From Pseudomonadota bacterium (GTDB lineage: Bacteria > Pseudomonadota > Alphaproteobacteria > Rhizobiales > Aestuariivirgaceae), in the NCBI GenBank assembly GCA_049323275.1, contig JBMOOM010000058.1, positions 11,177-75,176 on the forward strand: a stretch of 64,000 nucleotides of DNA, given 5' to 3'. The notes below the pieces were generated by a model. It had not been told where the DNA came from. It did not search any database and worked only from the letters and a program-made list of their open reading frames with translations. This document shows positions 1 to 57,603 of the stretch, one piece after another. Both the position numbers and the translations under genes were made by a program. Within the stretch, counting starts at the first letter, position 1. Every line of letters begins with the position of its first letter.

Positions 1-750
1 GTTGGCGATCGAGGCCAGCTTCGCCTTCATGGCGCCGTGATCGGGCTGCGACTCGGAGGTCGCCACCATGACCTGGTCCTGGGCGTTGCGGCGGGCGCCG
101 ACGGTCTTGCGGTAGTCGCGGAAAATCTTGGCCAGCTGGCTCGGCGACACGCGCGGCCACATGCGGACCTTGCCCGAGTCGACATGGACGAAGCCATACT
201 GGCCGGAGGTCGGGTAATAGCCGACGCCGCCGACCTGACGGACGAGCGCGCTGTTGCGGACCCGCTGGGTCGGAACGTCGGGGAAATAGATGTCGATGGC
301 CTTGCCGACCATGTGCTGGCTCTTCTTCGCCACATTGCGGCCGATGCGCTTCAGGAAGGCATTGGTCTTGGGCGAGCGGAAGCCGGAAACGATATGGACG
401 GGCCGGGTGGAGCCCAGGTCGGCATGCAGCTCCCAGACCAGGTCGATGGTCTTGGGGTCGATGCGGATGACTTCATTCCGGCGCCAGTCGCGCAGGATGT
501 AATTGAGCTTTTCCATGGCCGAAGGGATGTAGCGCCCGTTCACCTTGTAGGTGACGGTCAGGCTTTCCTTCGTGTGGGTCTGGTAGAGGGACAGGGTACG
601 GGTTTCACCGCCGGCGGTGGCCTCGCCATTGCCGAATCCGAACCACAGTCCGGCGGCAAGGGAACCGGCCAAAAATGTCGTGAAAGCAATCCGTTTCGCG
701 CGCGAGGTCAATGATCCACGGTGTCCGTTTTCAGCGGCCAGGAAACCCAT
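1..750 (-). CDS. DUF882/YcbK family peptidase M15 (MepK-like), runs off the window edge
   Basis: Not in the ORF track; translated by hand from the ATG at 750: MGFLAAENG...TRTLSLYQTHTKESLTVTY...LRDWRRNE...IDLVWEL...VSGFRSPKTN...SQHMVGKAIDI...VGYYPTSGQYGFVHVDSG. These are the DUF882 SxH/D/HxD motifs. Adjacent to an L,D-transpeptidase, as in ycbB-ycbK. Confidence 0.9.
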   Translation of the reverse strand, partial: MGFLAAENGHRGSLTSRAKRIAFTTFLAGSLAAGLWFGFGNGEATAGGETRTLSLYQTHTKESLTVTYKVNGRYIPSAMEKLNYILRDWRRNEVIRIDPKTIDLVWELHADLGSTRPVHIVSGFRSPKTNAFLKRIGRNVAKKSQHMVGKAIDIYFPDVPTQRVRNSALVRQVGGVGYYPTSGQYGFVHVDSGKVRMWPRVSPSQLAKIFRDYRKTVGARRNAQDQVMVATSESQPDHGAMKAKLASIAN

Positions 751-910
751 ACTCACTTTTAGACCGGCTGAACCCCGGTTCCCCTTGCTATTGTCCCGAA
801 AACAATGGTCACCCGTCCCAGAAACGGATTACACCAGTTCAATGCTTGCGACAAGAATACGGCTACTCTTAGGCAGCCATCCTGTCGATAAGTAACCTAA
901 ATCACTATCA

Positions 911-925
911 TTAACAGGGGCTTAA
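911..925. promoter_or_regulatory. CtrA box TTAA-N7-TTAA upstream of the DUF882 gene
   Basis: TTAAcaggggcTTAA is an exact match to the alphaproteobacterial CtrA consensus. Confidence 0.65.
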
Positions 926-963
926 ACAAAAAAGGCGGGCTGACTCTGCGGCAGTTCCCCAAG

Positions 964-2856: not shown

Positions 2857-2973
2857 TATCGGTAAACTCCCATAGTTGCCGCCTTAGCTAACCGCGGCTT
2901 CATGGCATTTCAACGGTCAGAGGTTCCCCGGGTTGCATTAAACCAGGACTGTCACGTTTTTGCCGCAACCCGG

Positions 2974-4473: not shown

Positions 4474-4593
4474 GCTTGACCGACACCACTCAGATTATAT
4501 GGCCGTTCGGGACAAAAGCCGTCTTGGAATGCGCGCCGCCCAGCAGCATTCCGGCCTTCCCCCCGTCTCACGGTCAACTGTGGCAAAGAAGGG

Positions 4594-4608
4594 TAAAGGG
4601 CACATTAA
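4594..4608 (-). promoter_or_regulatory. Near-consensus CtrA box upstream of the tacA-like gene
   Basis: Minus strand reads TTAAtgtgcccTTTA (one mismatch), about 120 bp upstream of the ATG. Confidence 0.45.
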
Positions 4609-4751
4609 GGACTTGGCGAGAATGGGGACAGTTCGGCGCGCTGTCCAGTGCCGTATGAAAGTGGCCTAGCGTCATGTGGTGTGGTTTCGCCTTATTGCCG
4701 AGGTCACATGCATGGGCCATATGAGCAGCAAAACAATCGAACGGATGGATC

Positions 4752-6542
4752 ATGGACACTGCCGCCGCCAAGAAGCTGGGCCCGCTGCCCGAATGGAATC
4801 TAGCCGATCTCTATGCCGCGCCGGACGATCCGGCTTTCGCCGCCGACATGAAGCGCGGCGAGGAGGAGGCGAAGGCTTTCGCAGAGGCTTACAAGGGCAA
4901 GCTCGCCGGCCTTGCCGGCGGTGACCTCGCCAAGGCGCTCGAGGCGTATGAGGGCCTGAGCGACCTTCTCGGCCGCGCCGGCTCCTATGCGCAGCTCTAT
5001 TATGTCGGCGACACCACCGATCCGGGGCGGGCGAAATTCTATGGCGATGTCAGCGCCAGGCTCACCAATATCTCGACCGTCCTCCTGTTCTTCGAACTCG
5101 AGCTCAACAAGATCGCCGATGAAGCCCTGGCCGAGAAGCTCAAAGTTCCGGCCTTGGCGCATTACCGGCCGTGGATCGACAATCTGCGCATGGAGAAGCC
5201 CTATCAGCTCGACGACAAGATCGAGGAGCTCTTCCTCGAGAAGTCGCAGACCGGCTATTCGGCCTGGAACCGGCTCTTCGACGAGAGCCTCGCCGAGATG
5301 CGCTTCACCGTCGATGGCGAAGAACTGTCGCTGGAGCCGACGCTGACGCTGATGATGAATCCGGATGAAGCAAAGCGCAAAGCCGGTGCCGAAGCGCTGG
5401 CTCAGACCTTCAAGAAGAATCTCCGTCTATTTACGCACATCACCAACACGCTCGCCAAGGACAAGGAGATTTCCGACCGCTGGCGCGGCTTCAAGGACAT
5501 CGCCGATGCGCGCCATCTGTCGAACCGCGTCGAGCCGGAAGTGGTGGCGGCCCTCGTCGAGGCGGTGCGCGCGGCCTATCCGCGCCTGTCGCATCGCTAC
5601 TATCAGATGAAGGCCAAGTGGCTCGGCAAGGCGAAACTCGACCATTGGGACCGCAATGCGCCGCTTCCCCAGGAAGACACACGCGAGGTTCCGTGGGACG
5701 ATGCGAAGGCCACCGTGCTCGATGCCTATAAGGGCTTCGCGCCGGAGATGGCCGAGATCGCCGGCCGCTTCTTCGACAAGAAATGGATCGACGCGCCGGT
5801 CAGACCCGGCAAGACGTCGGGCGCCTTCGCTCATCCGACGGTGCCCTCGGCGCATCCTTATGTGCTCCTCAACTACATGGGCAAGACGCGCGACGTGATG
5901 ACGCTGGCGCACGAACTCGGTCATGGCGTGCATCAGGTGCTCGCCGCCGGCCAGGGCGCGCTCATGGCGCAGACGCCACTGACGCTGGCCGAGACGGCGT
6001 CCGTCTTCGGCGAGATGCTCACCTTCCAGGCGCTGCTCAAGCAGGCGAAGGACCCGAAGAAGCGCAAGGCCATGCTCGCCCAGAAGGTCGAGGACATGCT
6101 CAACACGGTGGTGCGCCAGATCGCCTTCTATACGTTCGAGCGCAAGATTCACTTGGCGCGCAAGGAAGGCGAGCTCACCGCCGACCAGATCAACGCGCTG
6201 TGGCTCGAGGTGCAAAGCGAGAGCCTGGGGCCGGGCATCGCCTTCTCGGAAGGCTATGAGACCTTCTGGGTCTATATCTCGCACTTCATCCACTCGCCCT
6301 TCTATGTCTATGCCTATGCTTTCGGCGACTGCCTGGTGAACTCGCTTTATGCGCGCTACCAGGAAAGCGCCGAAGGCTTCCAGGCGAAATACTTCACCAT
6401 GCTGAAAGCGGGCGGCACCCAGCATCACAGCGAATTGCTGAAGCCCTTCGGCCTCGATGCGAGCGACCCTGCCTTCTGGCAGAAGGGGCTCAAGGTCATC
6501 GAGGGCTTCATCGACGAGCTCGAGGCGATGGAAGCCGCGTGA
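4752..6542 (+). CDS. pepF: M3 family oligoendopeptidase F
   Basis: N-terminal LPEWNLADLY; zinc motif LAHELGHGVH; LAETASVFGE; FIHSPFYVYAYAFG. Confidence 0.93.
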   Translation: MDTAAAKKLGPLPEWNLADLYAAPDDPAFAADMKRGEEEAKAFAEAYKGKLAGLAGGDLAKALEAYEGLSDLLGRAGSYAQLYYVGDTTDPGRAKFYGDVSARLTNISTVLLFFELELNKIADEALAEKLKVPALAHYRPWIDNLRMEKPYQLDDKIEELFLEKSQTGYSAWNRLFDESLAEMRFTVDGEELSLEPTLTLMMNPDEAKRKAGAEALAQTFKKNLRLFTHITNTLAKDKEISDRWRGFKDIADARHLSNRVEPEVVAALVEAVRAAYPRLSHRYYQMKAKWLGKAKLDHWDRNAPLPQEDTREVPWDDAKATVLDAYKGFAPEMAEIAGRFFDKKWIDAPVRPGKTSGAFAHPTVPSAHPYVLLNYMGKTRDVMTLAHELGHGVHQVLAAGQGALMAQTPLTLAETASVFGEMLTFQALLKQAKDPKKRKAMLAQKVEDMLNTVVRQIAFYTFERKIHLARKEGELTADQINALWLEVQSESLGPGIAFSEGYETFWVYISHFIHSPFYVYAYAFGDCLVNSLYARYQESAEGFQAKYFTMLKAGGTQHHSELLKPFGLDASDPAFWQKGLKVIEGFIDELEAMEAA

Positions 6543-6550
6543 GGGCGTAG

Positions 6551-7921
6551 GTGGCGGACGACGAGAACAGCCTGACCGGACGTCTGCTCCGCTACGCCAA
6601 TGTCGGAACGGGTGTCGGCAGTGCCGTTGCGCGCATCGCCGCCGGAAGGCTGCTCGGCGGCGAGCGCGGAACATCGGCGGAAGGCCAGCTTCTCGCCGAG
6701 GCGCTGGGCAATCTCAAAGGCCCGCTGATGAAGGTGGCGCAGTTGCTCGCCACCATTCCCGACGCATTGCCGGCGGCTTACGCGGCCGAGCTGGCGCAGC
6801 TCCAGTCGCAGGCGCCCGCCATGGGCTGGGCCTTCGTCAAGCGACGCATGGCGGCCGAGCTCGGTCCCGACTGGCGCAAGTCCTTCGCCGATTTCTCGCA
6901 CGAGGCGGCGCATGCGGCGTCGCTCGGCCAGGTGCATCGCGCCTCATCGCATGACGGCCGGCCGCTCGCCTGCAAGCTGCAATATCCCGACATGGATTCG
7001 GCGGTCGAGGCCGATCTCAAGCAGCTCAACATCATCTTCGCACTGCATCGGCGCATGTCGCCGGCGATCGATACGAGCGAGATCGGCGAGGAGATCGCGG
7101 CGCGCTTGCGCGAGGAGCTCGATTATGTGCGCGAGGCGAAGCATATCCGCCTCTATACGGAAATCCTCAAAGGCCATCCGGCGATCCACGTGCCGGCGGT
7201 CGAGCCGCAGCTGTCGACGCGCCGGCTCATCACCATGGGCTGGCTCGAAGGGCGCCGGCTGCTCGAGTTCAAGGAGCATGATCTCGACACGCGCAATCTG
7301 CTCGCCCGCAATCTTTTCGCGGCCTGGTGGACGCCGTTCTGCGGCCATGGCGTGATCCATGGCGATCCGCATCTCGGCAACTACTCGGCGTCGCTCGACG
7401 AGACCGGCAGGCCCAACGGCCTCAATCTCCTCGACTATGGCTGCATCCGCATCTTCCCGCCGCGCTTCGTCGAGGGCGTCGTCGATCTCTATCACGGGCT
7501 CCGCGCCGACGACCGCGCCCGCATCGTGCATGCCTATGAGACCTGGGGCTTCCAGAATCTCAGCAACGAATTGATCGACATCCTCAATATCTGGGCGCGC
7601 TTCATCTACGGCCCCCTGATGGAAGACCGGGTGCGCGCCATCGCCGACGGCGTATCGCCGGCGGAATATGGCCGCCGCCAGGCTTTCACCGTGCATCGGG
7701 CGCTGAAGGAGAAGGGGCCGGTCAAGGTGCCGCGCGAATTCGTGTTCATGGACCGCGCCGCGATCGGGCTCGGCGGGGTGTTCATTCATCTCCGCGCCGA
7801 GCTCAATTTCTACCGGCTGTTCAACGAGGCGCTGGAAGGCTTCAGCGTCGATGGCGTGGCGGCGCGCCAAGCGGCGGCGCTCGGGGCGGCCGAGCTTATT
7901 TCCAGTTCCCCATCAGGATGA
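6551..7921 (+). CDS. ABC1/AarF/UbiB family atypical protein kinase
   Basis: AASLGQVHRA, ACKLQYP, EELDY, HGDPHLGN and LDYG motifs. Confidence 0.92.
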   Translation: MADDENSLTGRLLRYANVGTGVGSAVARIAAGRLLGGERGTSAEGQLLAEALGNLKGPLMKVAQLLATIPDALPAAYAAELAQLQSQAPAMGWAFVKRRMAAELGPDWRKSFADFSHEAAHAASLGQVHRASSHDGRPLACKLQYPDMDSAVEADLKQLNIIFALHRRMSPAIDTSEIGEEIAARLREELDYVREAKHIRLYTEILKGHPAIHVPAVEPQLSTRRLITMGWLEGRRLLEFKEHDLDTRNLLARNLFAAWWTPFCGHGVIHGDPHLGNYSASLDETGRPNGLNLLDYGCIRIFPPRFVEGVVDLYHGLRADDRARIVHAYETWGFQNLSNELIDILNIWARFIYGPLMEDRVRAIADGVSPAEYGRRQAFTVHRALKEKGPVKVPREFVFMDRAAIGLGGVFIHLRAELNFYRLFNEALEGFSVDGVAARQAAALGAAELISSSPSG

Positions 7922-10859
7922 AGGCGGCCCAGTAATAGGGATGTGCGGTAGCGGCTGTGTCTGTCGTCCCGCCAGAGTCTTCGATGACTGTCATGGCACG
8001 GCTGGCGAGAGTAGTAGACTCCCGGTGGCCGCGCAGCAGCTCGAGTTGGGCGCGCCGCAAGGCGTGAGCCTTATCGAGGCCTTGTCTGATCAGCCCGTCA
8101 TAGAAATCCGTCATCAGTGTAGCGGTGGAGTCGTCGGCGATCTGCCATAGCGTCGAAAGGACGGCGGAGGCGCCCTTGGCCTGCGCCAGCATGCCGAGGC
8201 TCTCGATCTCCTCGCCCTCGGCGCCGCCGCCAAGCGCAGTCTCACAAGCTGACAGTGTGAGGAGCTCGGTTCCCCGAAAGCGAAATCTTTTCTGGGTCCG
8301 CAATTGGTTGAGGGTCAGGCCGTTGCCATCGCCGAGAAGTAGATAGGAATTGGTTTCGTTGCCGGGTCGGAAGCGGAAGTGACTGGCGATATGAAGTATC
8401 TGGGTCTCCGACGATAGTGTCCGCGCCAGGCTTTTCGCAGTGAATGCATCATCGAGCTTGGGCGTGCCGCCGACAACACCAATGACGGCGGCGAGTTCGC
8501 GCGCGGCGCCGGGCAGCGCCGCGAAGCCAGGATGCTCCCGTGTCACGCCGAAGCCCGCGCCGTTGAGCTTGCCGCGGCGCATCGCGGTGAATTTCGTGCG
8601 ATTGGCCGGATTGTAGAGTGCCAGCGCGAAATCCTCGATGAGATACCGCTTGCCGTCGTGAAGCGCCGCGTAGGGGACGTAGCGCAGGAAGCCGGACAGA
8701 TCGAGGAGCAGGACTGGCGCAACCGCGTCGCCGCGCATGACGGCCTCATCGAGGTCGGGGCGCACCGGCTTGATGAGTTGATCATAGAGGCCGGCGAGTT
8801 GGCCCTTCGCGTCATCGCGCCGGCTCTTGACGGCGTCAATGGCCGTGAAGACCAGTCTGGCGAGTTCCGGACGGCTGATCGGCACCTTGCGCCGGATCGT
8901 CTCGTGGCCGGCCTTGCTCACGAAGAAATAAAGTCCGTCCTCGAGGCTTATGATCTGGAGGAGAATGGTGTCGGGGCCCATGCTGCGGAGATCGGCCTCG
9001 ATCCGCTGGGCGTAACGCTGTCCGGATTCGAACTTCGCCTTTCGCGCCAGGAGATTTGCGGATTCAAAGCGACCGATGAGGCTGCGGGTTGCTGAGAGGA
9101 AGGCGCGCACCGCCTGATCTCGCCTGAGTTTCAGGGTCTGCTGCCGGGACCGATATTCGTCCTCCGATATTCCCGCCGCCTCGCGTGTGGCCATCGACTC
9201 CCTGATCTCGGCGGCAATCTGGAAGACAGGGGTCATGGCGGACCGTATGTCGGCCTGAAGTTTCTCCTCGGCCGCTGTGAGGCGGACATTGCCTGGTTCG
9301 ATATCGGGATCTGCCGGCGACCGGCCGGTGCCATTTTGTGTGAATTCGTAGAATTCCTGTTGCTTGAGCAGGCCGCCGACGAACTGTGCCTCGGAGTATT
9401 GGCCGTCTTCGAGCAGCAGTTCCGAGAGCAGAAGATAGGAAGGCTGAAAGCTCTGACCGAGCTTGGCGCGTAACATGTCCGACAGATTTCCGTTGCGGGC
9501 GCGGACGTCCTGATGTGCATTGACGGCCTGCTTGGCGAAAAAGACGGCGCTCGCCCGGGCGCCTCTGGCCCTCGAAGCGCGTGCCAGCATCCGATACGTA
9601 TAGCGCTGATTGTCGACATCCGCGCTGCTGGCGCCCGTCTGGATGAGCAATGCCTGCAGGCCGTCGTCGAGCGCCGCATCGTAGCGATGGAGTTTGCGCG
9701 ATGTGTTGCCGATGCGGGCGAGCATGGTGGCGGCCTCGGGGTGATCGGGCCCATAGGTATCGACGATGATCTTGAACGCTCTCCGGTAGTTCGTCAGGGC
9801 GTCCTCATGCTCTCCGAGATCGTCGTCCACATTGCCGAGATTGATGAGGGGATGCATCATCTCAACCTGATCGGGTCCGTAGTGGCTTTCCAAGATTTCC
9901 GCCGCGGCGCGATACTCCGCGCGTGCCGCGTCGTAGCGCTGCAGACCTTGATAGGCGAGGCCCAGTATGCTGCGCGTCGCCGCCACTGTGCGCGGGTCCG
10001 GAGACGCGGCCTTGGCGTAAAGCGCGAGAGCGGACTGCGCCGCTTCGGCCGCATCCTGGTTCTGTCCCAAGAGGTTGTAGGTGCGGCTCCTGGTCTTCAG
10101 GACATCGGCGATCTTTGCGGATGCGGGATCGCCCAGCCCGACATAGACGGCTTGGGCCCGATCGAGCGCTGCGAGCGCTTCGCCATAGCGGGCAAGGCTT
10201 ATGAGGCTGATCGCCTCGTTCTGATAGAGATTGCCGATGAGCTCGTTGTCGCGTCCCATGAGCTGGACAATGATCGCAACGGCTTTCTCGGTGGCGGCAA
10301 GCGATTCCTCCTGGCGGCCCGCGCCGGCGAGCCCATTTGCGAGATTCATATAGGCCCCGGCGACCTGCGGGTGGTTCTGCCTCAACTTGCGCTCGAAGAT
10401 GCGACGGGCGGCGTCATAGGCGACAATCGCTTCCTCGAAGCGACCGAGCTTCTCATAGGTGAAGCCGAGCTGCGACTGGATGTTGGCTTCGAGAAAATCC
10501 GCTCTGCCGCTCTTGCGCGCGAGGCCCAGGGCAATGTCGGCGAGGCGCAAGGCTTTGTTGAGATCGCCGGGCCTGCCTCTCTCCCTGAGAGCGAAGCTCA
10601 GCAGGTAGATCGCATTGGGATCCTTGGTTTGGGCGAGAGGGGCGAACAGGCTGATGGCCATGTCGACATCCCGCTCGACCCCGTTGCCGTCCAGATAGGC
10701 CTCGCCGAGCGCGATCATCGCTCCCGGATCGCCGGCTTGGGCGCGGTGGGTAAGGAAAAGTATATCCGGCGGTGCGGGATTTTGCGCCCGGCAAAGATCC
10801 GCAAAGCCCGGAAGTGCCAGGAGAAACACCAGCCAAAGGACAAGCAGTCGCCGTTGCAT
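7896..10859 (-). CDS. Secreted Sel1/TPR-repeat protein with C-terminal CHAT (caspase-like) domain
   Basis: Likely start MQRRLLVLWLVFLLALPGFA (signal peptide); Sel1 repeat AMIALGEAYLDGNGVERD; many TPRs; CHAT catalytic motifs LHIASHF and LTLSACET; C-terminal HPYYWAAFILMG. Confidence 0.88.
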   Translation of the reverse strand: MQRRLLVLWLVFLLALPGFADLCRAQNPAPPDILFLTHRAQAGDPGAMIALGEAYLDGNGVERDVDMAISLFAPLAQTKDPNAIYLLSFALRERGRPGDLNKALRLADIALGLARKSGRADFLEANIQSQLGFTYEKLGRFEEAIVAYDAARRIFERKLRQNHPQVAGAYMNLANGLAGAGRQEESLAATEKAVAIIVQLMGRDNELIGNLYQNEAISLISLARYGEALAALDRAQAVYVGLGDPASAKIADVLKTRSRTYNLLGQNQDAAEAAQSALALYAKAASPDPRTVAATRSILGLAYQGLQRYDAARAEYRAAAEILESHYGPDQVEMMHPLINLGNVDDDLGEHEDALTNYRRAFKIIVDTYGPDHPEAATMLARIGNTSRKLHRYDAALDDGLQALLIQTGASSADVDNQRYTYRMLARASRARGARASAVFFAKQAVNAHQDVRARNGNLSDMLRAKLGQSFQPSYLLLSELLLEDGQYSEAQFVGGLLKQQEFYEFTQNGTGRSPADPDIEPGNVRLTAAEEKLQADIRSAMTPVFQIAAEIRESMATREAAGISEDEYRSRQQTLKLRRDQAVRAFLSATRSLIGRFESANLLARKAKFESGQRYAQRIEADLRSMGPDTILLQIISLEDGLYFFVSKAGHETIRRKVPISRPELARLVFTAIDAVKSRRDDAKGQLAGLYDQLIKPVRPDLDEAVMRGDAVAPVLLLDLSGFLRYVPYAALHDGKRYLIEDFALALYNPANRTKFTAMRRGKLNGAGFGVTREHPGFAALPGAARELAAVIGVVGGTPKLDDAFTAKSLARTLSSETQILHIASHFRFRPGNETNSYLLLGDGNGLTLNQLRTQKRFRFRGTELLTLSACETALGGGAEGEEIESLGMLAQAKGASAVLSTLWQIADDSTATLMTDFYDGLIRQGLDKAHALRRAQLELLRGHRESTTLASRAMTVIEDSGGTTDTAATAHPYYWAAFILMGNWK

Positions 10860-11023
10860 GCGCCGTCCGGACAGGGAAACGATGAGGATATTGCCCTTCC
10901 TTTGCGGGATTTTGAAGGCGACCGTGGGACTCATCGCCGCGCCGGGCCTCAGTTCTTGCGGCGGGTAAGGCTCTAGGCTAGGTAAGTCTCCTCAGATTCC
11001 AAGGTTTTGAGGGGATTTCCGAC

Positions 11024-22120: not shown

Positions 22121-22191
22121 AACCTGCGTCATTTTCGGGCACTATCCACAGAAAACGGCCCGGTGCTCTGGTGATGAGCAAATCGCGGGCC

Positions 22192-22219
22192 AAAAAAAAG
22201 CCGCGCAAAAGCGCGGCTT
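22192..22219 (-). terminator. Intrinsic terminator on the minus strand
   Basis: 9-bp stem (22198-22206/22211-22219) plus 8 A on the plus strand. Confidence 0.85.
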
Positions 22220-22330
22220 AAAAGGTTCTAACAGGGAGGCGTCAAACAGAGTGGACAGGAGCCACTCGGAGAATCCAGATGACTGGATTACATTGATGAA
22301 AATACAACCGAATCCCTTACTGATTGGTTA
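22192..22330 (-). ncRNA. Probable trans-acting sRNA between DUF1192 and rcdA (possibly BjrC1505 family)
   Basis: ORF-free gap; strong minus-strand terminator AAGCCGCGC-TTTT-GCGCGGCTT followed by a U-run; preceded by CU-rich CUCCUGUCCACUCUGUUUGACGCCUCCCUG. The 5' end is approximate and the family name is from recall. Confidence 0.55.
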
Positions 22331-22371
22331 ACGATACGGTTGCTTAACGCAAAAAGAGTCTGAACGCCGTC

Positions 22372-39438: not shown

Positions 39439-39469
39439 CCGGCTTACAGGATCGGGGACCAAAAATTCG

Positions 39470-39505
39470 CGTCACTTCAGGCCGGTTGACGGTCCTGAAG
39501 TGACG
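39470..39505. terminator. Hairpin at the 3' end of the ureohydrolase operon
   Basis: CGTCACTTCAGG / CCTGAAGTGACG 12-bp stem with an upstream A-run. Confidence 0.6.
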
Positions 39506-39623
39506 GAAACATCCCACGTTTTTCAAACATTCAGACTGACATGGGCGCCAGGATTCCCTGGCTGCGTGTCCGGCCGGGGAATGGCGGGCGTGATCGCCGG
39601 AATGTGATCGCGAGCAGCCTTCG

Positions 39624-40670
39624 CTACTCGGCGGCGATCAGGTCGGCGCGGCGCAGTGAGGCGTCGATGACGTCGCCGCGCGCGGCCGCCAGCGACGCCA
39701 TCAGGCGCATGATGACGCAGGCGGCGAGACGCGCCGCCGTGCCGCTGATGTCGAAAATCGGGCAGAGCTCGGTGAGGTCGATCACCGAAACCTGGCCGCG
39801 CCTGGCGATCATGTCGGCGATGCGCATCATCTCGCGCGACTCGATGCCGCCGGGCTCCGTCGCGGTGACGCCGGGCGCGGCGGATGAATCCATCACGTTG
39901 AAGTTGAAGCTGAGATATTGCGCATCGGTGCCGGTCCAGACGCGCTCGATCCCCTTCTCGACCGGCGGGAACAGGCCCTGATCGACGAGATCGAACATGG
40001 AGTTGAAGGCGAGGCCGCGCTCGCGCGCGAGGTCGATATGGTCCTTGGGATTCATGGCGTTGCGGGCGCCCAGATGCGCGACATTGCCGATCGCGAGATT
40101 GGGCAGCTCGGTGATGCGGGCCAGGGCGCAAGGCGCCAGATTGCGCTCGCCCGCCCAGCTGTCGGCCATGTCGAGATGGGCGCCGAAATGCATGTAGCCC
40201 ATCTTCTTCTGCGCGCCGATATGATCCGACAGCGCGCGCGCCGCGGCGATCGAGATCGAGCGGTCGCCGCCGCAGACGATGGGCGTGACGCCCGACTGCA
40301 GGACTTCGCGCACGGCGCGGTAGATGCGCTCATGGGCGACGTCGGGGCTCACCTTCGGCATCGACACGTCGCCGCAATCGACTGCCTTGCCGTTGAGATC
40401 GACATTGTATTCGAACCAGTAGGAGAAATATTCCTGCGAGACGAGTCGGAATTCACGCGGGCCGTCCTCGGAGCCGGGCTTGCCGACATTGCCTTCGTCG
40501 AAAGGCACGCCGAGAAAGGCATATTGGGCGCCGCTCTTGCGCAGCGCGTCCGCCTTGAGCGGCACATGCGCCGAGCGCAGGAAGGTGATGAGGCCGGGGG
40601 CGCGGTAATTGTCGCCCGCGTCGCCGCCGAGCGGGGAGAAAAGATGCGCATAGGCTTTTGCCGGATTCAT
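39624..40670 (-). CDS. Ureohydrolase beta subunit, non-catalytic (MfmB/MefH-beta-like)
   Basis: Arginase fold but metal ligands lost: GGDRS (H>R), HFGAHLD (D>G), FNFNVMD (DxD>NxN). The N-terminus MNPAKAYAHLFSPLGGDAGDNYRAPG matches my recall of metformin hydrolase beta. Confidence 0.85.
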   Translation of the reverse strand: MNPAKAYAHLFSPLGGDAGDNYRAPGLITFLRSAHVPLKADALRKSGAQYAFLGVPFDEGNVGKPGSEDGPREFRLVSQEYFSYWFEYNVDLNGKAVDCGDVSMPKVSPDVAHERIYRAVREVLQSGVTPIVCGGDRSISIAAARALSDHIGAQKKMGYMHFGAHLDMADSWAGERNLAPCALARITELPNLAIGNVAHLGARNAMNPKDHIDLARERGLAFNSMFDLVDQGLFPPVEKGIERVWTGTDAQYLSFNFNVMDSSAAPGVTATEPGGIESREMMRIADMIARRGQVSVIDLTELCPIFDISGTAARLAACVIMRLMASLAAARGDVIDASLRRADLIAAE

Positions 40671-40690
40671 GATGTCGTCTCCTCCTGAAA

Positions 40691-41764
40691 TTATGGTTGC
40701 CTGCCGTGCCGGCGCAGCGTCTCGGCGCGCGAGCCGAGATAGTGGTAGATCATGTTGACCGCCATCTTGGCGCTGATCTGGCTCGAATCGAAATACGGAC
40801 AGAGCTCGACGACATCGAGAATGTCGCAGCCATACTGGCCGGCGATACGGGCGAACAGGATCGCCTCGCGGCCCTTGAGGCCGTAGCATTCGGGCGACGT
40901 CGAGCCCGGCATGCAGCTCATGTCGATGGAGTCGGTGTCCCAGGTGAAATAAAGCGTGTCGGCATCCTTCTTCACGCGCTCGAAGACCTCGCGCGCGCAC
41001 GCCTCGAGGCCACGCTCGACGACCTCGGGCATGGCGACGACGCGGATCTCGTTGTCGACATAGAAGTCCCACCAGTCCTTAGGGTTCAGGCCGTTGCGCG
41101 AGCCCAGATGCGCCATGTTGCGGGCCGAGACATTGGGCAGATCGAGGGCGCGCGGCGCGCCCGAGCAGTTGGTGATGGGATTGCCGGCCCAGTCGGGGCC
41201 GGCATCGAGATGGCTGTCGACATGGAGGTAGCCCATACGGCCGGCGCCGGTGTAGCGCGACAGCGCCTTGGCGCCGGGGATCGGCAGTGAGTGATCGCCG
41301 CCGAACAGGATGACCTTGGCGCCGCCCTCCAGGCATTCGGTGACGTAATCGGTGGTGTAGTCCTGCGACCTGGCATTGTTGCCCGGCACATTCGGCACAT
41401 CGCCGCAGTCGACGACACGAAAGAAGCTCAACAGGTCGACGTCATATTCGAACATGTAGGGAAAATACTGCGTCGTCGCCTCGCGCAATGCCGAAGCGCC
41501 TTGCGAGGTGCCGGCGCGGACGATCTGGCCCTGGTCCCAGGGGACGGCGAGAAAGCAGATCTTGGCGCCCATCGCGCGGATCTTGTGGCGGTCGGGCGGG
41601 CAATAGGGCGCGCCCATGAAGGTGGCGAGGCCGCGCGACTTGAAGGCGCCATTATGCAGTTTGGGCGAATAGATATGGTCGAGCGGGCCGTGCTGCTCAG
41701 CCGGACCTTGATGCTGATGCGGCGTGAAGCGCCATGGGGTGGTCTCCGATCTCTCCTCTCGCAT
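40691..41764 (-). CDS. Ureohydrolase alpha subunit, catalytic; probable dimethylguanidine hydrolase (MfmA-like)
   Basis: Intact ligands H158 (GGDH), D183/H185/D187 (HVDSHLD), D276/D278 (WDTDSID); TNCSG at 198-202; loop PGSTSPE at 286-292. Confidence 0.82.
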   Translation of the reverse strand: MREERSETTPWRFTPHQHQGPAEQHGPLDHIYSPKLHNGAFKSRGLATFMGAPYCPPDRHKIRAMGAKICFLAVPWDQGQIVRAGTSQGASALREATTQYFPYMFEYDVDLLSFFRVVDCGDVPNVPGNNARSQDYTTDYVTECLEGGAKVILFGGDHSLPIPGAKALSRYTGAGRMGYLHVDSHLDAGPDWAGNPITNCSGAPRALDLPNVSARNMAHLGSRNGLNPKDWWDFYVDNEIRVVAMPEVVERGLEACAREVFERVKKDADTLYFTWDTDSIDMSCMPGSTSPECYGLKGREAILFARIAGQYGCDILDVVELCPYFDSSQISAKMAVNMIYHYLGSRAETLRRHGRQP

Positions 41765-42140
41765 AGGCTTCCTCCTCGAACGGTTCTTGTGACGGCGTAG
41801 TTTCGATCTCGATGTCGACCAGCTCCAATTCGCGCCCGCTCAGCACCTGGCGCGACGGCCGGCCGCAATCCGGGCAGCGCAGATTGGCGAGCGAGCGGGG
41901 CGTCTTTTCCCCTTTGCAGGCGGCGCAGAACAGCGTGAGCGGAATCTCCTCGATATGCAGCCTGGCGCCCTCGCACAGCGTGCCGCGGGTCGCGGGGCCG
42001 AAGCAGAAATAGAGCGAACGCGCGATGCCGCGCATGGCGCCGAGACGGACAAACATCCGGGTGACGCGTCCGGCGCCCTGTTTTTCCGCGTGGTCGCAGG
42101 CGATGGCGATGAGGCTCGCGGCGATGGTCAGCTCATGCAT
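41697..42140 (-). CDS. hypA: Nickel metallochaperone HypA
   Basis: MHELTIA N-terminal Ni motif; CAAC...CPDC zinc finger; SGRELEL. Confidence 0.92.
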   Translation of the reverse strand: MHELTIAASLIAIACDHAEKQGAGRVTRMFVRLGAMRGIARSLYFCFGPATRGTLCEGARLHIEEIPLTLFCAACKGEKTPRSLANLRCPDCGRPSRQVLSGRELELVDIEIETTPSQEPFEEEAYARGEIGDHPMALHAASASRSG

Positions 42141-42981
42141 GGTGATGATGCTCGCCGGCCGCATGCTGGCGGGCATGGCCGATCCAATGGAGCCAGTCCG
42201 CCATGCCTTGACCGTCGCGCGCCGACAGGACGATCGCCTCGATATCGGGATTGATGTCGCGGGCGCGCGCGATGCAGGCTGCAATGTCGAAGTCGCAATG
42301 GGGCGCAAGATCGGCCTTGGAGATGAGCAGCAGGTCGGCGACGGCGAAGGCTTCCGGATATTTGACGGGCTTGTCGTCGCCTTCCGTCACCGAGAGGATG
42401 ACGACCTTGTGGGCCTCGCCCAGGTCGAAGCCGGCCGGGCAGGCGAGGTTGCCGACATTCTCGATGAAGAGCACGCCGCCGGCCTCGAGCGCCAGGCCGG
42501 AAAGCGCCTGATCGATCATGTCGGCATCGAGATGGCAGCCCTTGCCGGTATTGATCTGCACTGCCTCTGTGCCGGTGGCGCGGATGCGCTCGGCGTCGTT
42601 GGACGTCTCCTGGTCGCCCTCTATCACCCAGGTGGGGAAGGCGCTGCCGAGGCGCCGCAAGGTCTCGACCAGCAAGGTCGTCTTGCCGGCGCCGGGACTG
42701 GCGATGAGATTGAGGGCCAGGATCGAGCGCATCGCGAGCTTGCGGCGCACGCCGTCGGCATGAAAGTCGTTCTTCGCCAGGATCTCGCGCTCGATCTGGA
42801 CCAGGCGCGTCTGGTTCATGCCGGGAACGCTCACTTTGGCGATGTCGCGGCCGAAATGCAGATTCTGGTGAAGGGGATGATTGCGATCGTGGGCCTGATC
42901 ATGCTGATGATGCGCCAGGGGACCGGCGCCCCTGCCGTCGATGCGCTTATCGCTGGGACCGCAACCGCAGATCTGGCACAT
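42133..42981 (-). CDS. hypB: Nickel-insertion GTPase HypB
   Basis: MCQICGC, His-rich linker, SPGAGKTT, NTGKGCHLDA, ENVGNLACP, EGDDKP; C-terminal EHHHHA. Confidence 0.95.
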   Translation of the reverse strand: MCQICGCGPSDKRIDGRGAGPLAHHQHDQAHDRNHPLHQNLHFGRDIAKVSVPGMNQTRLVQIEREILAKNDFHADGVRRKLAMRSILALNLIASPGAGKTTLLVETLRRLGSAFPTWVIEGDQETSNDAERIRATGTEAVQINTGKGCHLDADMIDQALSGLALEAGGVLFIENVGNLACPAGFDLGEAHKVVILSVTEGDDKPVKYPEAFAVADLLLISKADLAPHCDFDIAACIARARDINPDIEAIVLSARDGQGMADWLHWIGHARQHAAGEHHHHA

Positions 42982-43000
42982 GATCAGCCTCCCTGGAAAA

Positions 43001-43684
43001 TCATCTCCCGGCGGATTTAGTCCCGCCCGCATAATGCAAGAGCCGCCAGATGACGGTTTTGAGCGTCTTCATCGCATCGGGAATCGGCGCGCCATTCGGC
43101 ATGAAGCTGCCGAAGTAGATGCCGTCGATATTGCGCGAGATGAAGGCGGCCATCTCTTCCGCGTCGGGGCAGGTGAAGAGGCCCGCGGCCTGTCCCTTGC
43201 GAATGCAATCGGCCAGGATCTTCTTCTCGGTTTCGTAGAAGTCCTCGACGAAGCTGTCGATGAATTTCGGTCCGCCGTCATCGGCATGACCGACATTGAC
43301 GAACATGATGCGCACCACGCTGCGCAGCGTTTCCGACATCTCGACATTGAGATCGAGATAGGCGTCGAGCCGCGCGACCGGACTGTCATGGCGCGTGAGC
43401 ACGGCGCCGTAATTGGTCATCAGCCGGTCGAGCGCGTGCAGCACCGAGGACTGATAGAGAATATCCTTGCTCTTGAAATAATAATAGATCAGCGAATGCG
43501 CCACGCCGAGCTTCTTGGCGACGAGCGGAATGGTGACCTTCCTGTAGTCCTCTTCGGCGAAGCATTTGAGCGCAGCCTCGAGCAGCGAGTCGGCGCGCGC
43601 GCCCGGATTCCGATAGAGCCGGTTCTTGGCGCGCTTCACCGATTTCACGCGGTCTGCGAGGTGGCTGAGGGCCAGGGATTCCAT
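43001..43684 (-). CDS. TetR/AcrR family regulator leading the hydrolase operon
   Basis: LLEAALKCFAEEDYRKVTIPLVAKKLGVAHSLIYYYFKSKDIL; start uncertain. Confidence 0.9.
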   Translation of the reverse strand: MESLALSHLADRVKSVKRAKNRLYRNPGARADSLLEAALKCFAEEDYRKVTIPLVAKKLGVAHSLIYYYFKSKDILYQSSVLHALDRLMTNYGAVLTRHDSPVARLDAYLDLNVEMSETLRSVVRIMFVNVGHADDGGPKFIDSFVEDFYETEKKILADCIRKGQAAGLFTCPDAEEMAAFISRNIDGIYFGSFMPNGAPIPDAMKTLKTVIWRLLHYAGGTKSAGR

Positions 43685-43700
43685 GGTGCGTTGGCAATAT

Positions 43701-43869
43701 TTGACAGTTGTTTCAAGATAATCTGCACATGCTTTGACAGTTGTGTCAATTCACATTTAAGGCCTGGCCCTTCGTTTGATCCATATTTTATTGATACATT
43801 TACGCAGGAGTTGGAATTTTTCCGGTCGTCAAACTTTTTGGCGACAAATGATTTGACAAATATGTCAAA
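43701..43869. promoter_or_regulatory. Three TTGACA-N4-TGTCAA-type operator palindromes in the divergent promoter
   Basis: 43701-43716 (TTGACAGTTGTTTCAA, one mismatch), 43734-43749 (perfect), 43852-43869 (TTTGACAAATATGTCAAA, perfect). Confidence 0.8.
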
Positions 43870-43985
43870 GTACATCAGCCTGATCGTGAGATCGCTCGTC
43901 CTGGCTGCAGAATTCATGGCGAAGACCATGCCGGACAGGTTTTCGAGCCGCTCACGCGTTCATTCAATCTTTGGAGGAGGATGGA

Positions 43986-44177
43986 ATGAGTATCTCTGCG
44001 CTGACCGACAACAGTGAAATCCGCCAGGAGCTCGATCGCAGGCTGGCGATCCTGGATGACCCCGCCTACAGCGATCCGGCGCGCGCCGACATATCGGGCC
44101 GCGAGATCGCGATCTGGTTCGCCATCGCGGCGGCGATCACCGCCGTGGCGCTTCTCTTGCGCGGCTGGGGCGCGTGA
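43986..44177 (+). CDS. Small single-TM membrane protein upstream of the permease
   Basis: GGAGGAGG RBS; 63 aa with a C-terminal hydrophobic helix; stop overlaps the permease ATG (TGATG). Confidence 0.75.
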   Translation: MSISALTDNSEIRQELDRRLAILDDPAYSDPARADISGREIAIWFAIAAAITAVALLLRGWGA

Positions 44178-45598
44178 TGGCGGTGCAGTCCCAGAAGATC
44201 ACCGGCGCCAGTGCCGCTTTCGGCACGCTGCCGGTCCTGAGAGAGGAACGCGAGCTCGGCTTCCTCGATCATTCCTGGATCAATATCGGCCTCGCGATCG
44301 CCACCTGGGCGTTCCTCCTCGGCGGCAGCACGGCGTTGGTGGTCGGCGCCCATGACGGCATCTATGCCATCGTCATCGGGAATGTGATCGGCGTCGCCAT
44401 CATGGCGGCGAGCGTGTGCATCTCGACCGGCAAATACGGGATCGAGCAGTTCACCTTGCTGCGCTCGGTCTTCGGGCCGCTCGGCATATTGATCCTGGTG
44501 GGCCTGTTTCTCGCCGTCTATGGCGTCGGCTGGTCGTCGATCCTGTCGATCATGTTCGGGCGCGCGCTGAGCGGCGTGTTCAACCAGGCCGGTGGAACCC
44601 GGATCGGCGAGAACGATCTCGGCGTGTCGCTGCTGGCGCTGGTGGCCATCGCGATCTCGTGGCTCCTGCTGTGGCGCGGGCCGACCGCGGTCAAGTGGCT
44701 CAACCGTTTCGTCGGGCCCGGCAAGCTCGTTCTGTGCGTCGGCACGCTGTTCCTGATCTTCGGCGCAAAGAGCTGGAGCGACATCGCCAGCGCGCCGCCG
44801 CTCGCACCCTTCGAGGATCCGCGGGTGAATTTCATGATCGCGGTCGAGTTCAATCTCGCCGCCGGCTTCGGCTGGTGGCCGATACTGGGCAATATCTCCC
44901 GCTTCACGCGGACACCGCGCGCGGCTTTATGGCCCAATTTGATCGGCGTGTTCGCCGCCGCCGTGCTCGGCGAGCTGGTCGGGCTGTTCGCCGCGCTGAG
45001 CCTCGGCTCGCATGATCCGACCGCCTGGATGATTCCGCTCGGCGGCATGGTCGCGGGCGTCGCGGCGCTGCTCTTCATCGGGCTCGCCAACATCACGGCG
45101 ATCGTCAGCATCTTCTATGGCATGTGCCTCGCCATGCGGCAGGCGGGCGGGCGCCATCTCGAAGCCGTCTCCTGGGGGCTGCTCACCGGCGTGCTGTTCG
45201 TGCCCGTCGCGGTGATGGCCTTCTTTCCGGGGCAGATCTACGATAATTTCTTCAAGTTCCTGGCCTGGACGGCGCTCGGCTTCGCGCCGCTCTCCGGCGT
45301 CACCGCGGTGGACTATCTGGTCCTCAGGCGCGGGCGGATCCGGCAGAGCGACGTCTATAGCGACGCCCCGACCTCGGATTATGCCTTCTGGCGCGGCATC
45401 AATCCGGCCGCCTTCCTCGCCATCGCGATCGGCGGGATCGTCTATTATCTGCTGTTCGATCCGCTGTCGCTCGCGACCCATGGCCTGTTCATCTGGCTCA
45501 GCGCGTCGGTGCCCGCCTGCTTCATCGCCGGGCTCTCCTACTACCTGCTGACCAGGGCGCTCATCATCCCCGCCAGGCTCGGCGGTTATGAGCGCTGA
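44177..45598 (+). CDS. NCS1 (cytosine/purine permease, CodB-like) transporter
   Basis: About 12 TM helices; IATWAFLLGG, GKYGIEQFTLLRSVFG, GWWPILGNISRF, VDYLVLRR, WRGINPAA. Confidence 0.87.
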   Translation: MAVQSQKITGASAAFGTLPVLREERELGFLDHSWINIGLAIATWAFLLGGSTALVVGAHDGIYAIVIGNVIGVAIMAASVCISTGKYGIEQFTLLRSVFGPLGILILVGLFLAVYGVGWSSILSIMFGRALSGVFNQAGGTRIGENDLGVSLLALVAIAISWLLLWRGPTAVKWLNRFVGPGKLVLCVGTLFLIFGAKSWSDIASAPPLAPFEDPRVNFMIAVEFNLAAGFGWWPILGNISRFTRTPRAALWPNLIGVFAAAVLGELVGLFAALSLGSHDPTAWMIPLGGMVAGVAALLFIGLANITAIVSIFYGMCLAMRQAGGRHLEAVSWGLLTGVLFVPVAVMAFFPGQIYDNFFKFLAWTALGFAPLSGVTAVDYLVLRRGRIRQSDVYSDAPTSDYAFWRGINPAAFLAIAIGGIVYYLLFDPLSLATHGLFIWLSASVPACFIAGLSYYLLTRALIIPARLGGYER

Positions 45599-45630
45599 CC
45601 ACACTCCCCGCCCTATGGGCAAACTGACGA

Positions 45631-45659
45631 GAGCGCCGGTCCTGTATGGGCCGGCGCTC
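45631..45659. terminator. Hairpin between the convergent permease and cupin genes
   Basis: GAGCGCCGGTCC / GGGCCGGCGCTC. Confidence 0.6.
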
Positions 45660-45670
45660 CGCTTCTTCAT

Positions 45671-46186
45671 CTAAGCTTTGCCGCGCAGGCGGTCGGGCAG
45701 GCCGTCATGCGGACCCAGCGGCCGCGGCGGGTCGATCTTCCAGTGACGGTCGCCGATCTCCTCGTTGCGCTTGGGATGCATCGGATAGTGGATGCGGCTG
45801 CGCATGCGCGACGCCTCGCCGACCACCAGGATGCGGACATCCTGCTCGGTATTGTTGATGATCGTGTGGGCAAGGCCGGTGCCGGCCGGGAAGGAGACGC
45901 CGTCGCCGGGCTTCAGCCGCTTGAGGTGGCCGTCGGCCCACAAATCGGGCTCACCCTCGAGCACGAAGACGAACTCGTCCTCATCGGCCTCGGCATGCGG
46001 CCAGGAGACGCGCCGTCCGGGCTGCAGCCTTTCATGATGGATGCCGAGGCGCATGAGCCCATGCGTCTCGCTGAAGGAGGCGCCGATCGACAAGAGCTCG
46101 TCGGAGCCTCGGTAGTGATTGTCGTCCTTGCCTTCGATATCGAGCCAATGGGCGACGAAGGCGGAAAAATCGATGGGGCCGGTCAT
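45671..46186 (-). CDS. Cupin domain protein
   Basis: LGIHHERLQPGRRVSWPHAEADEDEFVFVLEG...FPAGTGLAHTIIN. Confidence 0.88.
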   Translation of the reverse strand: MTGPIDFSAFVAHWLDIEGKDDNHYRGSDELLSIGASFSETHGLMRLGIHHERLQPGRRVSWPHAEADEDEFVFVLEGEPDLWADGHLKRLKPGDGVSFPAGTGLAHTIINNTEQDVRILVVGEASRMRSRIHYPMHPKRNEEIGDRHWKIDPPRPLGPHDGLPDRLRGKA

Positions 46187-46230
46187 GAGGTGATCTCCCT
46201 GGAGAGTCGTCACCGCACTATACCGGCCCG

Positions 46231-46343
46231 TAGATCACGATCAATTCAGGTCGGCTCGACCTGAATTGATGAACGTGATCGAATCTTAAATGTGGCGCGT
46301 GATCGGGCGGAAAACCGGTGTCCACTTTTCCGGACCACGCGCT
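46231..46343 (+). repeat. Composite RIME-like palindromic repeat (A + B units)
   Basis: TAGATCACG-ATCAATTCAGGTCG-GCT-CGACCTGAATTGAT-GAACGTGATC followed by GGCGCGTGATC...GGAAAACCGG...CCACTTTTCC...CACGCGCT. Confidence 0.85.
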
Positions 46344-52913: not shown

Positions 52914-53075
52914 TCGGCGAGCTGCCCGGTGCGTGAGGAGATCTTTTCCCTGGGGCCTATACGATTCTCGCGGGAGCTGTCCCTAGGCTTGGCCGTGGCC
53001 TTGCCCACATGGCGCCCACCTACACTTGTAGGTACCCGGGATCGTCATTCTCCCACGGCCATGGCGGCCCGCCAC
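52914..53075 (+). ncRNA. ssrS: 6S RNA
   Basis: Directly upstream of ygfA. Motifs CCCTGGGGCC, GGGAGCTGTCCCT, CACATGGCGCCCACCTAC, GTAGG..CCGGGATC; 5' GGCGAGCTGCC pairs with 3' GGCGGCCCGCC. Ends approximate. Confidence 0.85.
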
Positions 53076-53712: not shown

Positions 53713-54537
53713 ATGCGGCTTCTCTTTCTCGGCGACGTCGTCGGCCGCTCGGGCCGCGAGGCGGTGGCGCGCGTGCTGCCGCAACTGCGCGAGCGCCATG
53801 CGCCCGATCTCGTGGTGATCAATGGCGAGAACGCCGCGCATGGCTTCGGCATCACCGAGGACATCTATAACGGCCTCATCGATGCCGGCGCCGATGTGGT
53901 GACGCTCGGCAATCATTCCTTCGACCAGCGCGAGGCGCTCATCTTCATCGAGCGCGTGCCCAATATGCTCCGCCCACTGAATTATCCGCCGGGCGTGCCG
54001 GGCAAAGGCGTCGGCCTGTTCGTGACCAAGACCGGCAAGCGGGTGCTGGTGATGAACGTCATGGGCCGGGTGATGATCGAGCCGCAGCTCGACGATCCGT
54101 TCCGCGCCGTCGACCGCGAGTTCGAGCTCTGCGCGCTCGGACGCGACTGCGACGCGGTGATCATTGATTTCCATGCCGAGGCGACGTCGGAGAAGATGGC
54201 CTTCGGCCATTATGTCGACGGGCGCGCCAGCCTCGTCGTCGGCACTCATACGCATGTGCCGACCGCCGATCATCACATCCTCAGGAACGGCACCGCCTAT
54301 ATGAGCGATGCCGGCATGTGCGGGGACTATGATTCAGTGATCGGCATGGCGAAGGAAGAGCCGATCCAGCGCTTCACCCGCAAATTGCCGGTGGAGCGCA
54401 TGCGCCCGGCCGAAGGCGAGGCGACGGTCGCGGGTGTGGCCGTCGAGACCGATGATGCGACCGGTCTCGCCGTAAAGGTCGCGCCGATCAGGATCGGAGG
54501 ACGTCTCGCCGAAGCGCGGATCGATTTCTGGACTTAG
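53713..54537 (+). CDS. TIGR00282/YmdB family metallophosphoesterase
   Basis: LGDVVG, NGENAAHG, TLGNH, DFHAEATSEK, GTHTHVPT. Confidence 0.94.
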   Translation: MRLLFLGDVVGRSGREAVARVLPQLRERHAPDLVVINGENAAHGFGITEDIYNGLIDAGADVVTLGNHSFDQREALIFIERVPNMLRPLNYPPGVPGKGVGLFVTKTGKRVLVMNVMGRVMIEPQLDDPFRAVDREFELCALGRDCDAVIIDFHAEATSEKMAFGHYVDGRASLVVGTHTHVPTADHHILRNGTAYMSDAGMCGDYDSVIGMAKEEPIQRFTRKLPVERMRPAEGEATVAGVAVETDDATGLAVKVAPIRIGGRLAEARIDFWT

Positions 54538-54650
54538 CGCGTGATCAGGAAAGGCGGATGCCGGTTTTCCGTCCGATCAGGCGCTGAACATCAGGATTCA
54601 GATCACGTTGATCACTTTAGGTCGATCCGACCTAAAGTGATCGTGATCTA
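54535..54650 (-). repeat. Composite RIME-like palindromic repeat, inverted copy of 46231-46343
   Basis: Reverse complement reads TAGATCACGATCACTTTAGGTCGGATCGACCTAAAGTGATCAACGTGATC...AGCGCCTGATCGGACGGAAAACCGGCATCCGCCTTTCCTGATCACGCGCTA. Confidence 0.85.
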
Positions 54651-57494: not shown

Positions 57495-57528
57495 GGCACG
57501 TTCCCTTGAAGCTGCGGACTTTATCGTT

Positions 57529-57578
57529 GGCGCGTGATCGGACGGAAAACCGGCATCCACTTTTCCTGATCACGCGCT
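57529..57578 (+). repeat. RIME-like palindromic repeat (B unit alone)
   Basis: GGCGCGTGATCGGACGGAAAACCGGCATCCACTTTTCCTGATCACGCGCT. Confidence 0.85.
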
Positions 57579-57603
57579 GGCAAAGAATGCTATGCCCCGG
57601 CCC

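Follow-up and report, generated by a model that had tools for sequence, protein, structure and literature searches.

Two closely related ureohydrolases, each built from an alpha and a beta subunit, release dimethylamine from different substrates: MefH converts metformin to guanylurea and dimethylamine, and DmgH, which is 93% identical to MefH, splits N,N-dimethylguanidine into urea and dimethylamine (Sinn et al, 2024; PMC11399263). Despite this high identity, DmgH has no metformin activity. Specificity is set by the alpha subunit, and DmgH gains metformin activity when Ser184 is changed to Cys and Ser288-Thr289-Ser290 to Asn-Ser-Ala (PMC11399263). A homologue with 70% identity to DmgH hydrolyzes dimethylguanidine and not metformin (PMC11399263). 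On the transport side, the NCS1 importer MetT of Aminobacter sp. NyZ550 is required for growth on metformin, and its cavity is lined by residues W43, F47, W117, W231 and T260 (Xu et al, 2026; PMC13390362). Here we analyze a 64,000-nt stretch of contig JBMOOM010000058.1, from a Nordella-like host, referred to as the window. The window contains a gene cluster encoding a TetR-type regulator, the nickel chaperones HypB and HypA, a ureohydrolase's alpha and beta subunits, a 63-aa membrane protein and an NCS1 permease. We find it likely that this region is a self-contained 6.1-kb cassette for N,N-dimethylguanidine catabolism, orthologous to the published DmgH system and accessory in Nordella-like Hyphomicrobiales.

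The hydrolase carries the specificity residues of DmgH

We compared the two predicted subunits with all PDB sequences. The closest matches of alpha are structures of metformin hydrolase subunit A (8snf, 8snk, 8x3g and 8ryi; E about 1e-221), and those of beta are subunit B structures of the same enzyme (8ryi_C among them; E 3e-206), with solved structures available at 84-85% identity to the window subunits. The next matches of both subunits are entries for the guanidine hydrolase GdmH (7esr and 9fek; E 1e-37 to 1e-41). An earlier note on this DNA had proposed a HypAB-linked, heteromeric nickel ureohydrolase in a region without hydrogenase genes. The matches to the MefH/DmgH family agree with this proposal, and Pfam scans across the 64 kb, performed on open reading frames (ORFs) chosen by codon-position G+C bias, revealed no hydrogenase, urease, nickel transporter, transposase or integrase.

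As references for more detailed comparison, we used the DmgH locus of Aminobacter niigataensis DSM 7050 (L008) and MefH of the Pseudomonas mendocina plasmid pMET-2 (PmMefH; P0147, L081). The earlier note had related the window enzyme to MfmAB and DmgH, and low identity to these proteins was not seen: alpha shares 87.4% identity with DmgH-alpha and 83.8% with PmMefH-alpha, and the corresponding values for beta are 88.5% and 85.3%. Both subunits fall inside the 70-100% identity span of characterized DmgH enzymes, and are 36% identical to one another. Our recomputed identities between DmgH of DSM 7050 and MefH (alpha 93.3%, beta 93.1%) agree with the published values (PMC11399263).

The metal site is asymmetric between the subunits, as the earlier note had recognized. 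Alpha retains all six metal ligands (H158, D183, H185, D187, D276 and D278), making up an intact binuclear site, and the equivalent positions in beta are occupied by R137, G163, H165, D167, N256 and N258. Beta therefore keeps two ligands (H165 and D167) and has four of the six replaced, the same number that is lost in published beta subunits (PMC11399263).

In the numbering of PMC11399263, window alpha possesses Ser184 and Ser288-Thr289-Ser290, the DmgH states at all four specificity positions, unlike PmMefH, which possesses Cys184 and Asn288-Ser289-Ala290. DmgH-alpha and PmMefH-alpha differ at 24 sites, and window alpha shares the DmgH residue at 18 of these, the MefH residue at five and neither at one. 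Because of the DmgH-type specificity residues, the DmgH state at these 18 sites and the activity of the 70%-identical homologue on dimethylguanidine, dimethylguanidine hydrolysis is the best-supported function for this enzyme. We accordingly describe it as a putative DmgH orthologue, of the dimethylguanidine type rather than the metformin type, as the earlier note had anticipated.

Organization of the cluster

All genes of the cluster are intact and in the places assigned to them by the earlier note, and the six larger genes are each placed without ambiguity by Pfam and NCBIfam (Table 1). Five genes form a minus-strand operon in the order tetR-hypB-hypA-alpha-beta, with only short gaps or overlaps between them, and the small membrane protein and permease genes are divergent from it. 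The tetR stop codon lies 19 nt from the hypB start, which is preceded by a GGGAGG ribosome-binding site; the 3' end of hypB and the hypA start have 8 nt in common; and the alpha start is preceded by GGAGGA, with a gap of 20 nt between alpha and beta. A 301-bp A+T-richer spacer, in which G+C content falls to 0.55, separates tetR from the divergent plus-strand pair. The two genes of this pair meet in a TGATG stop-start junction, a translationally coupled overlap.

The chaperones carry the expected sequence motifs: HypB has the N-terminal nickel motif MCQICGCG, a His-rich stretch and a P-loop, and HypA has an N-terminal MHE and two CxxC motifs. We also noted that hypA has no stop codon ahead of alpha, resulting in a 68-nt overlap (41697-41764) and a 147-aa product, compared to 128 aa on pMET-2. 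A close relative (L086) has this overlap in its gene calls as well.

A hairpin is found at each end of the cluster. Both were overlooked by a terminator pattern scan and recovered by folding, in which none of 200 shuffled sequences was as stable as either one.

Table 1. Features of the cluster and its borders, with positions in the 64,000-nt window.
Feature	Position	Strand	Details
tetR (TetR/AcrR, MetR1 orthologue, 227 aa)	43001-43684	-	PF00440 E 8e-14; first operon gene
hypB, nickel GTPase (282 aa)	42133-42981	-	TIGR00073 265 bits; NF007775 343 bits
hypA, nickel metallochaperone (147 aa)	41697-42140	-	PF01155 E 6.5e-26; TIGR00100 90 bits
Ureohydrolase alpha (putative DmgH-alpha orthologue, 357 aa, catalytic)	40691-41764	-	PF00491 E 2e-49
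Ureohydrolase beta (putative DmgH-beta orthologue, 348 aa, degenerate metal site)	39624-40670	-	PF00491 E 1e-54
63-codon gene, single-pass membrane protein	43986-44177	+	no Pfam or NCBIfam family match
NCS1 permease (MetT orthologue, 473 aa)	44177-45598	+	PF02133 E 1e-26
Hairpin with U-run, 3' of beta and of convergent DUF465 gene	39470-39508	-	dG -34.6 kcal/mol, z -5.8
12-bp GC-rich hairpin between convergent permease and cupin genes	45631-45659	.	dG -35.5 kcal/mol, z -4.0 on + strand
Three TTGACA-N4-TGTCAA palindromes	43701-43716, 43734-43749, 43853-43868	.	divergent promoter region; candidate TetR operators
Cupin gene (180 aa)	45671-46213		between permease and fba

The regulator and its candidate operators

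The TetR protein shares 81% identity with its DSM 7050 counterpart and 73% with that of pMET-2. We identified three matches to the palindrome TTGACA-N4-TGTCAA with at most one mismatch (0.06 expected), all of them in the spacer between tetR and the transporter genes and nowhere else in the 64 kb. The one mismatch is in the palindrome at 43701. In each of the nine Aminobacter-group loci (L001-L009, near position 7700), the stretch that separates tetR from the transporter gene contains exact copies of the palindrome with other 4-nt spacers, and in a further relative (L020) this stretch contains two such copies, at 7904 and 8024. We consider these palindromes candidate operators for a MetR1-type TetR protein, which would control both divergent promoters. 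A full-text literature search found no published operator for MetR1, and an Rfam scan of the window found no guanidine riboswitch.

The NCS1 permease

The permease is 83.6% identical to the DmgH-linked copy of DSM 7050 and 79.6% identical to MetT of pMET-2. As in the Aminobacter loci and on pMET-2, its gene is divergent from the adjoining operon of regulator and hydrolase genes. To place the MetT cavity residues, we used the pMET-2 copy and assumed a one-residue offset, as the numbering of PMC13390362 is not one-to-one there. With this assumed offset, all three cavity tryptophans (W43, W117/118 and W231/232) are retained in the window permease. With the same offset, both the window and DSM 7050 permeases have Leu in place of Phe47 and Ala in place of Thr260 (Ser261 in pMET-2). 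Since the window and DSM 7050 copies differ from MetT at these two positions, the importer too may have adapted to metformin.

The gene of a 63-aa membrane protein is coupled to the permease gene

The small ORF upstream of the permease gene spans 63 codons in 14 of 14 loci, with zero insertions or deletions, and its third codon positions have a G+C content (GC3) of 0.84. Substitutions in the ORF are biased toward third positions, with 3, 4 and 10 at codon positions 1, 2 and 3 in comparison with L086, and 16, 14 and 32 in comparison with L008. The constant length, the substitution bias and the high GC3 lead us to conclude that the ORF is a real gene. The encoded family is small: a word-based search of 5.8 billion proteins returned only six clusters, and a profile search of 1.84 billion representatives returned 26 family proteins of 51-83 aa. 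Its members share the motif ELxRRLxxxxDPxYxDPAR, followed by a single hydrophobic helix.

We examined what lies next to these genes. The downstream gene encodes an NCS1 permease in five of the five loci where it is complete (L089, L090, L092, L093 and L094; three family members), and begins 0-3 nt away or overlaps the small gene. In L088 and L091, whose contigs end early, an unidentified next gene begins at the same junction as NCS1 does elsewhere. Other neighbors of the family are CN-hydrolase genes, amidohydrolase genes or an arginase-hupE pair. It is possible, though doubtful at present, that the 63-aa protein is an unrecognized auxiliary subunit of an NCS1 subfamily that imports guanidine- or amide-type nitrogen compounds.

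The pMET-2 copy of the gene (L081 12991-13182) has an in-frame stop codon ahead of the hydrophobic helix, and the ORF is not listed within the published metTR1ABCaCb cluster (PMC13390362). The small protein is evidently not essential for metformin uptake, and the interrupted pMET-2 copy means that it may have been lost as the system switched to metformin.

Two of the loci encoding family members (L093, and L094 at 1-8207) contain a putative guanidine-compound island, in which an arginase-family gene, hupE, the small ORF and NCS1 are found with an SMR-family exporter gene. This island also encodes a Rieske/VanA-type oxygenase with a DmmA-like reductase, and is followed in L093 by IS3-type transposase genes.

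The cluster is an accessory cassette at a core chromosomal site

Upstream of the cluster, the window contains acs, suhB, rpsU, purK, purE and two DUF465 genes; downstream are the cupin gene, fba, pgk, tkt, zapA, the 6S RNA gene, ruvCAB and tolQR. The window is thus a core chromosomal region, and its copy of the cluster is chromosomal and free of insertion sequences (IS). This agrees with the earlier note, which had placed the cluster between purE/DUF465 and fba without IS or integrase genes, except that the cupin gene intervenes before fba. We found no tRNA genes in the window that could mark an integration site. Nor do the cluster borders share direct or inverted repeats of at least 9 nt, such as would be expected from a target-site duplication or from terminal repeats.

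Window positions 26532-54266 align collinearly with the chromosome of Nordella sp. HKS 07 (L095) at 83-88% DNA identity, but everything from about 39550 to 45670, corresponding to the 6.1-kb cluster, is absent from that chromosome (L095 8207-9510 versus window 39439-45683). This empty site has a homologue of the beta-side hairpin together with its 3' flank, so this hairpin belongs to the old flank and not to the cluster, being either older than the cluster or independent of it. The permease-side hairpin is absent from the empty site. The earlier note was right that hairpins lie at both ends, but only the permease-side hairpin is missing where the cluster is missing. Nordella sp. HKS 07 also has a fused, tandem-duplicated cupin gene (348 aa), compared to the single 180-aa cupin of the window.

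An exact look-up of the window alpha protein returned no record, and its relatives were reached via cluster members. Five relatives carry the cluster at exactly the same chromosomal site, with cluster divergence similar to flank divergence. In two of these (L086 and L087; alpha 97% identical to the window), the content of the site is the same as in the window. Two others (L082 and L083; alpha 95% identical) have a HupE/UreJ nickel permease gene after beta (L082 8289-8915). In the fifth (L020; alpha 95% identical), a four-gene polyamine-type ABC transporter (3846-7891) replaces the small ORF and the NCS1 gene. The binding protein of this ABC transporter recurs beside more distant alpha/beta pairs, and the transporter is probably an older partner of the hydrolase. 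In the window, tblastn found no match to hupE, the XRE-type regulator gene metR2 or the ABC binding protein. With HupE of pMET-2 as query, tblastn matched L001-L009 and four remoter loci at 34-45% identity, and matched neither the window nor L020. Overall, the cluster is an accessory, modular cassette that behaves as a 6.1-kb insertion/deletion.

Some further features of the region are of separate interest. An intergenic repeat of ~115 bp with an internal palindrome (GATCACGATCAATTCAGGTCG...) is found at 46231-46343 in the window, and incomplete copies lie at 54536-54650 and 57528-57579. The repeat also occurs in Nordella sp. HKS 07, at 9390-9504 and 11998-12114 of L095, one copy being located exactly at the cluster-free site. 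The only Rfam matches in the window are 6S RNA (52916-53074; 77.6 bits) and the alphaproteobacterial small RNA BjrC1505 (22191-22338; 90.4 bits). Window positions 7896-10934 encode a 1012-aa protein that combines TPR repeats with a CHAT (caspase-like) domain at its C-terminus.

Proposed function and physiological substrate

By analogy with the characterized orthologues (Sinn et al, 2024; Li et al, 2024; Xu et al, 2026), we propose that the permease would import the cationic substrate, that HypA and HypB would load two Ni2+ ions into alpha, and that alpha and its metal-free paralogue beta would assemble as an alpha2-beta4 hexamer, which would hydrolyze dimethylguanidine to dimethylamine and urea. 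In our model, TetR would repress both divergent promoters by binding the TTGACA-N4-TGTCAA palindromes and would be released by the substrate, and nickel import and urea use would rely on genes elsewhere in the genome. The cassette would have been inherited at one core-genome site, as a sister to the Aminobacter clusters that gave rise to metformin hydrolase.

Several points weigh against this model. Both the substrate and the operators are assigned from sequence, the operators as candidates defined by their motif, and scans of the window for consensus sigma-70 promoters and terminator patterns performed no better than chance. The 64 kb contain no urease gene, whereas in Aminobacter a neighboring urease served as an argument for dimethylguanidine as the substrate, and the window cluster is without hupE, unlike the Aminobacter clusters. 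Finally, no natural occurrence of dimethylguanidine is known (PMC11399263, PMC12508155), which makes the physiological substrate of the whole family uncertain.

With no natural source of dimethylguanidine known, an enzyme of the same family and mechanism could have another guanidine compound as its natural substrate, with dimethylguanidine merely the best laboratory surrogate. Consistent with this idea, Km values are in the millimolar range (PMC11399263), relatives combine the hydrolase with either an NCS1 or a polyamine-type ABC importer, and urease is missing near the window copy. However, among the guanidines tested, characterized DmgH and MefH enzymes accept only dimethylguanidine and/or metformin and do not accept methylguanidine, DSM 7050 grows on dimethylguanidine (PMC11399263), and the specificity residues are identical in the window. 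We judge a different natural substrate to be unlikely, and favor dimethylguanidine as the predicted substrate of the window enzyme.

Evolution of the cluster

In a neighbor-joining tree, the window clade is recovered with a bootstrap value of 100, and its sister group is the Aminobacter-group clade, a placement given by topology and pairwise identities. MefH is nested within the Aminobacter-group clade on a long branch, at 93% identity to Aminobacter DmgH, and the window clade is 84-88% identical to the Aminobacter/MefH clade. Gene content follows a similar division: hupE is common to the Aminobacter and plasmid clusters, XRE-type metR2 is present in most of them, and the window has neither. 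From these data, the window copy is related as a cousin to the ancestor of the metformin cluster and is not that ancestor itself. At the DNA level, window alpha-beta is 84.7% identical to Aminobacter, and the core genes are 83-88% identical to those of Nordella. Because alpha-beta is as close to Aminobacter as the core genes are to Nordella, this comparison suggests an old horizontal transfer of the cluster between families.

The earlier note had regarded the IS-free chromosomal copy as preserving the state from which the plasmid metformin cluster was mobilized. The chromosomal location in a core-gene neighborhood, with zero mobility genes in 64 kb, fits this scenario, as do the Tn3 and IS3 transposases that flank the plasmid copy. 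The scenario conflicts, however, with the nesting of MefH in the Aminobacter clade to which the window clade is sister, with the lack of hupE and metR2, and with the absence of the cluster from the chromosome of Nordella sp. HKS 07, which is otherwise collinear. Moreover, cluster content varies between close relatives, and the identity of alpha-beta to Aminobacter points to a past transfer between families. We consider it highly improbable that the window retains a pre-mobilization state, and the earlier note's ancestral interpretation lacks support.

That chromosomal DmgH is the predecessor of plasmid MefH is not new, and was stated by Sinn et al (2024; PMC11399263). Used as an outgroup, window alpha indicates that MefH holds the derived state at 18 of the 24 DmgH/MefH alpha differences, among them the four residues that tip specificity, in agreement with the published direction of evolution. 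The hydrolase core appears to be a small traveling cassette, for which the importer (NCS1 or ABC) and the nickel permease are exchangeable. This modularity is useful for forecasting which environmental bacteria could evolve metformin degradation.

Comparison with known systems

GdmH (Sll1077; PDB 7esr/7oi1) resembles the window enzyme as a nickel-dependent ureohydrolase activated by HypA/HypB-like chaperones, but is a single-gene homo-oligomer that acts on free guanidine and is a distant match only, at E 1e-39 to 1e-41, in contrast to the two-subunit enzyme of the window. The two subunit genes and the distant match to 7esr and 9fek do not fit a GdmH-type guanidine hydrolase.

The metformin hydrolases (MefH/MetCaCb/MfmAB; 8ryi, 8snf, 8snk, 8x3g; P. 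mendocina pMET-2) share with the window their family, fold and subunit pair, their nickel chaperones and their type of regulator and transporter. Distinct from the window, the MefH cluster of pMET-2 has Tn3 and IS3 transposase flanks, hupE and an in-frame stop in the small ORF. We see next to no chance that the window enzyme is itself a metformin hydrolase and the locus a chromosomal metformin-degradation cluster: the architecture is the same and the best PDB matches bear that name, but alpha lacks the four changes needed for metformin activity (Cys184 and Asn-Ser-Ala), its 83.8% identity to MefH-alpha contrasts with the 97.5% shared by two MefH-alpha proteins and with the near-identity of MefH among known degraders (PMC11399263), even DmgH at 93% identity to MefH is without metformin activity, and Leu47 and Ala261 of the transporter, as placed by the assumed offset, match the DmgH-linked copy.

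The closest described system is DmgH of A. niigataensis DSM 7050 (PMC11399263). As in the window, its operon runs tetR-hypB-hypA-alpha-beta, the small ORF and the NCS1 permease gene are divergent from it, and a candidate operator palindrome lies upstream of tetR. The enzymes share the six ligands of alpha, the two of beta, Ser184 and Ser288-Thr289-Ser290. The whole gene set and order of the window is found in nine Aminobacter-group loci. Compared to the DSM 7050 cluster, the window lacks hupE after beta, the XRE/MerR-type metR2 after the permease and a nearby urease; its hypA extends into alpha; and it derives from a Nordella-like host rather than a member of the Phyllobacteriaceae, with the cluster sited between the cupin gene and the DUF465/purEK core region. 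In the literature compared, including the full-text search for MetR1, descriptions are missing only for the candidate TetR operator and for the small protein coupled to NCS1. Overall, all DmgH-defining features that can be tested in sequence are present in the window and the MefH-defining features are absent, and the locus adds a DmgH orthologue from a second family-level lineage while leaving the current picture of these systems unchanged.

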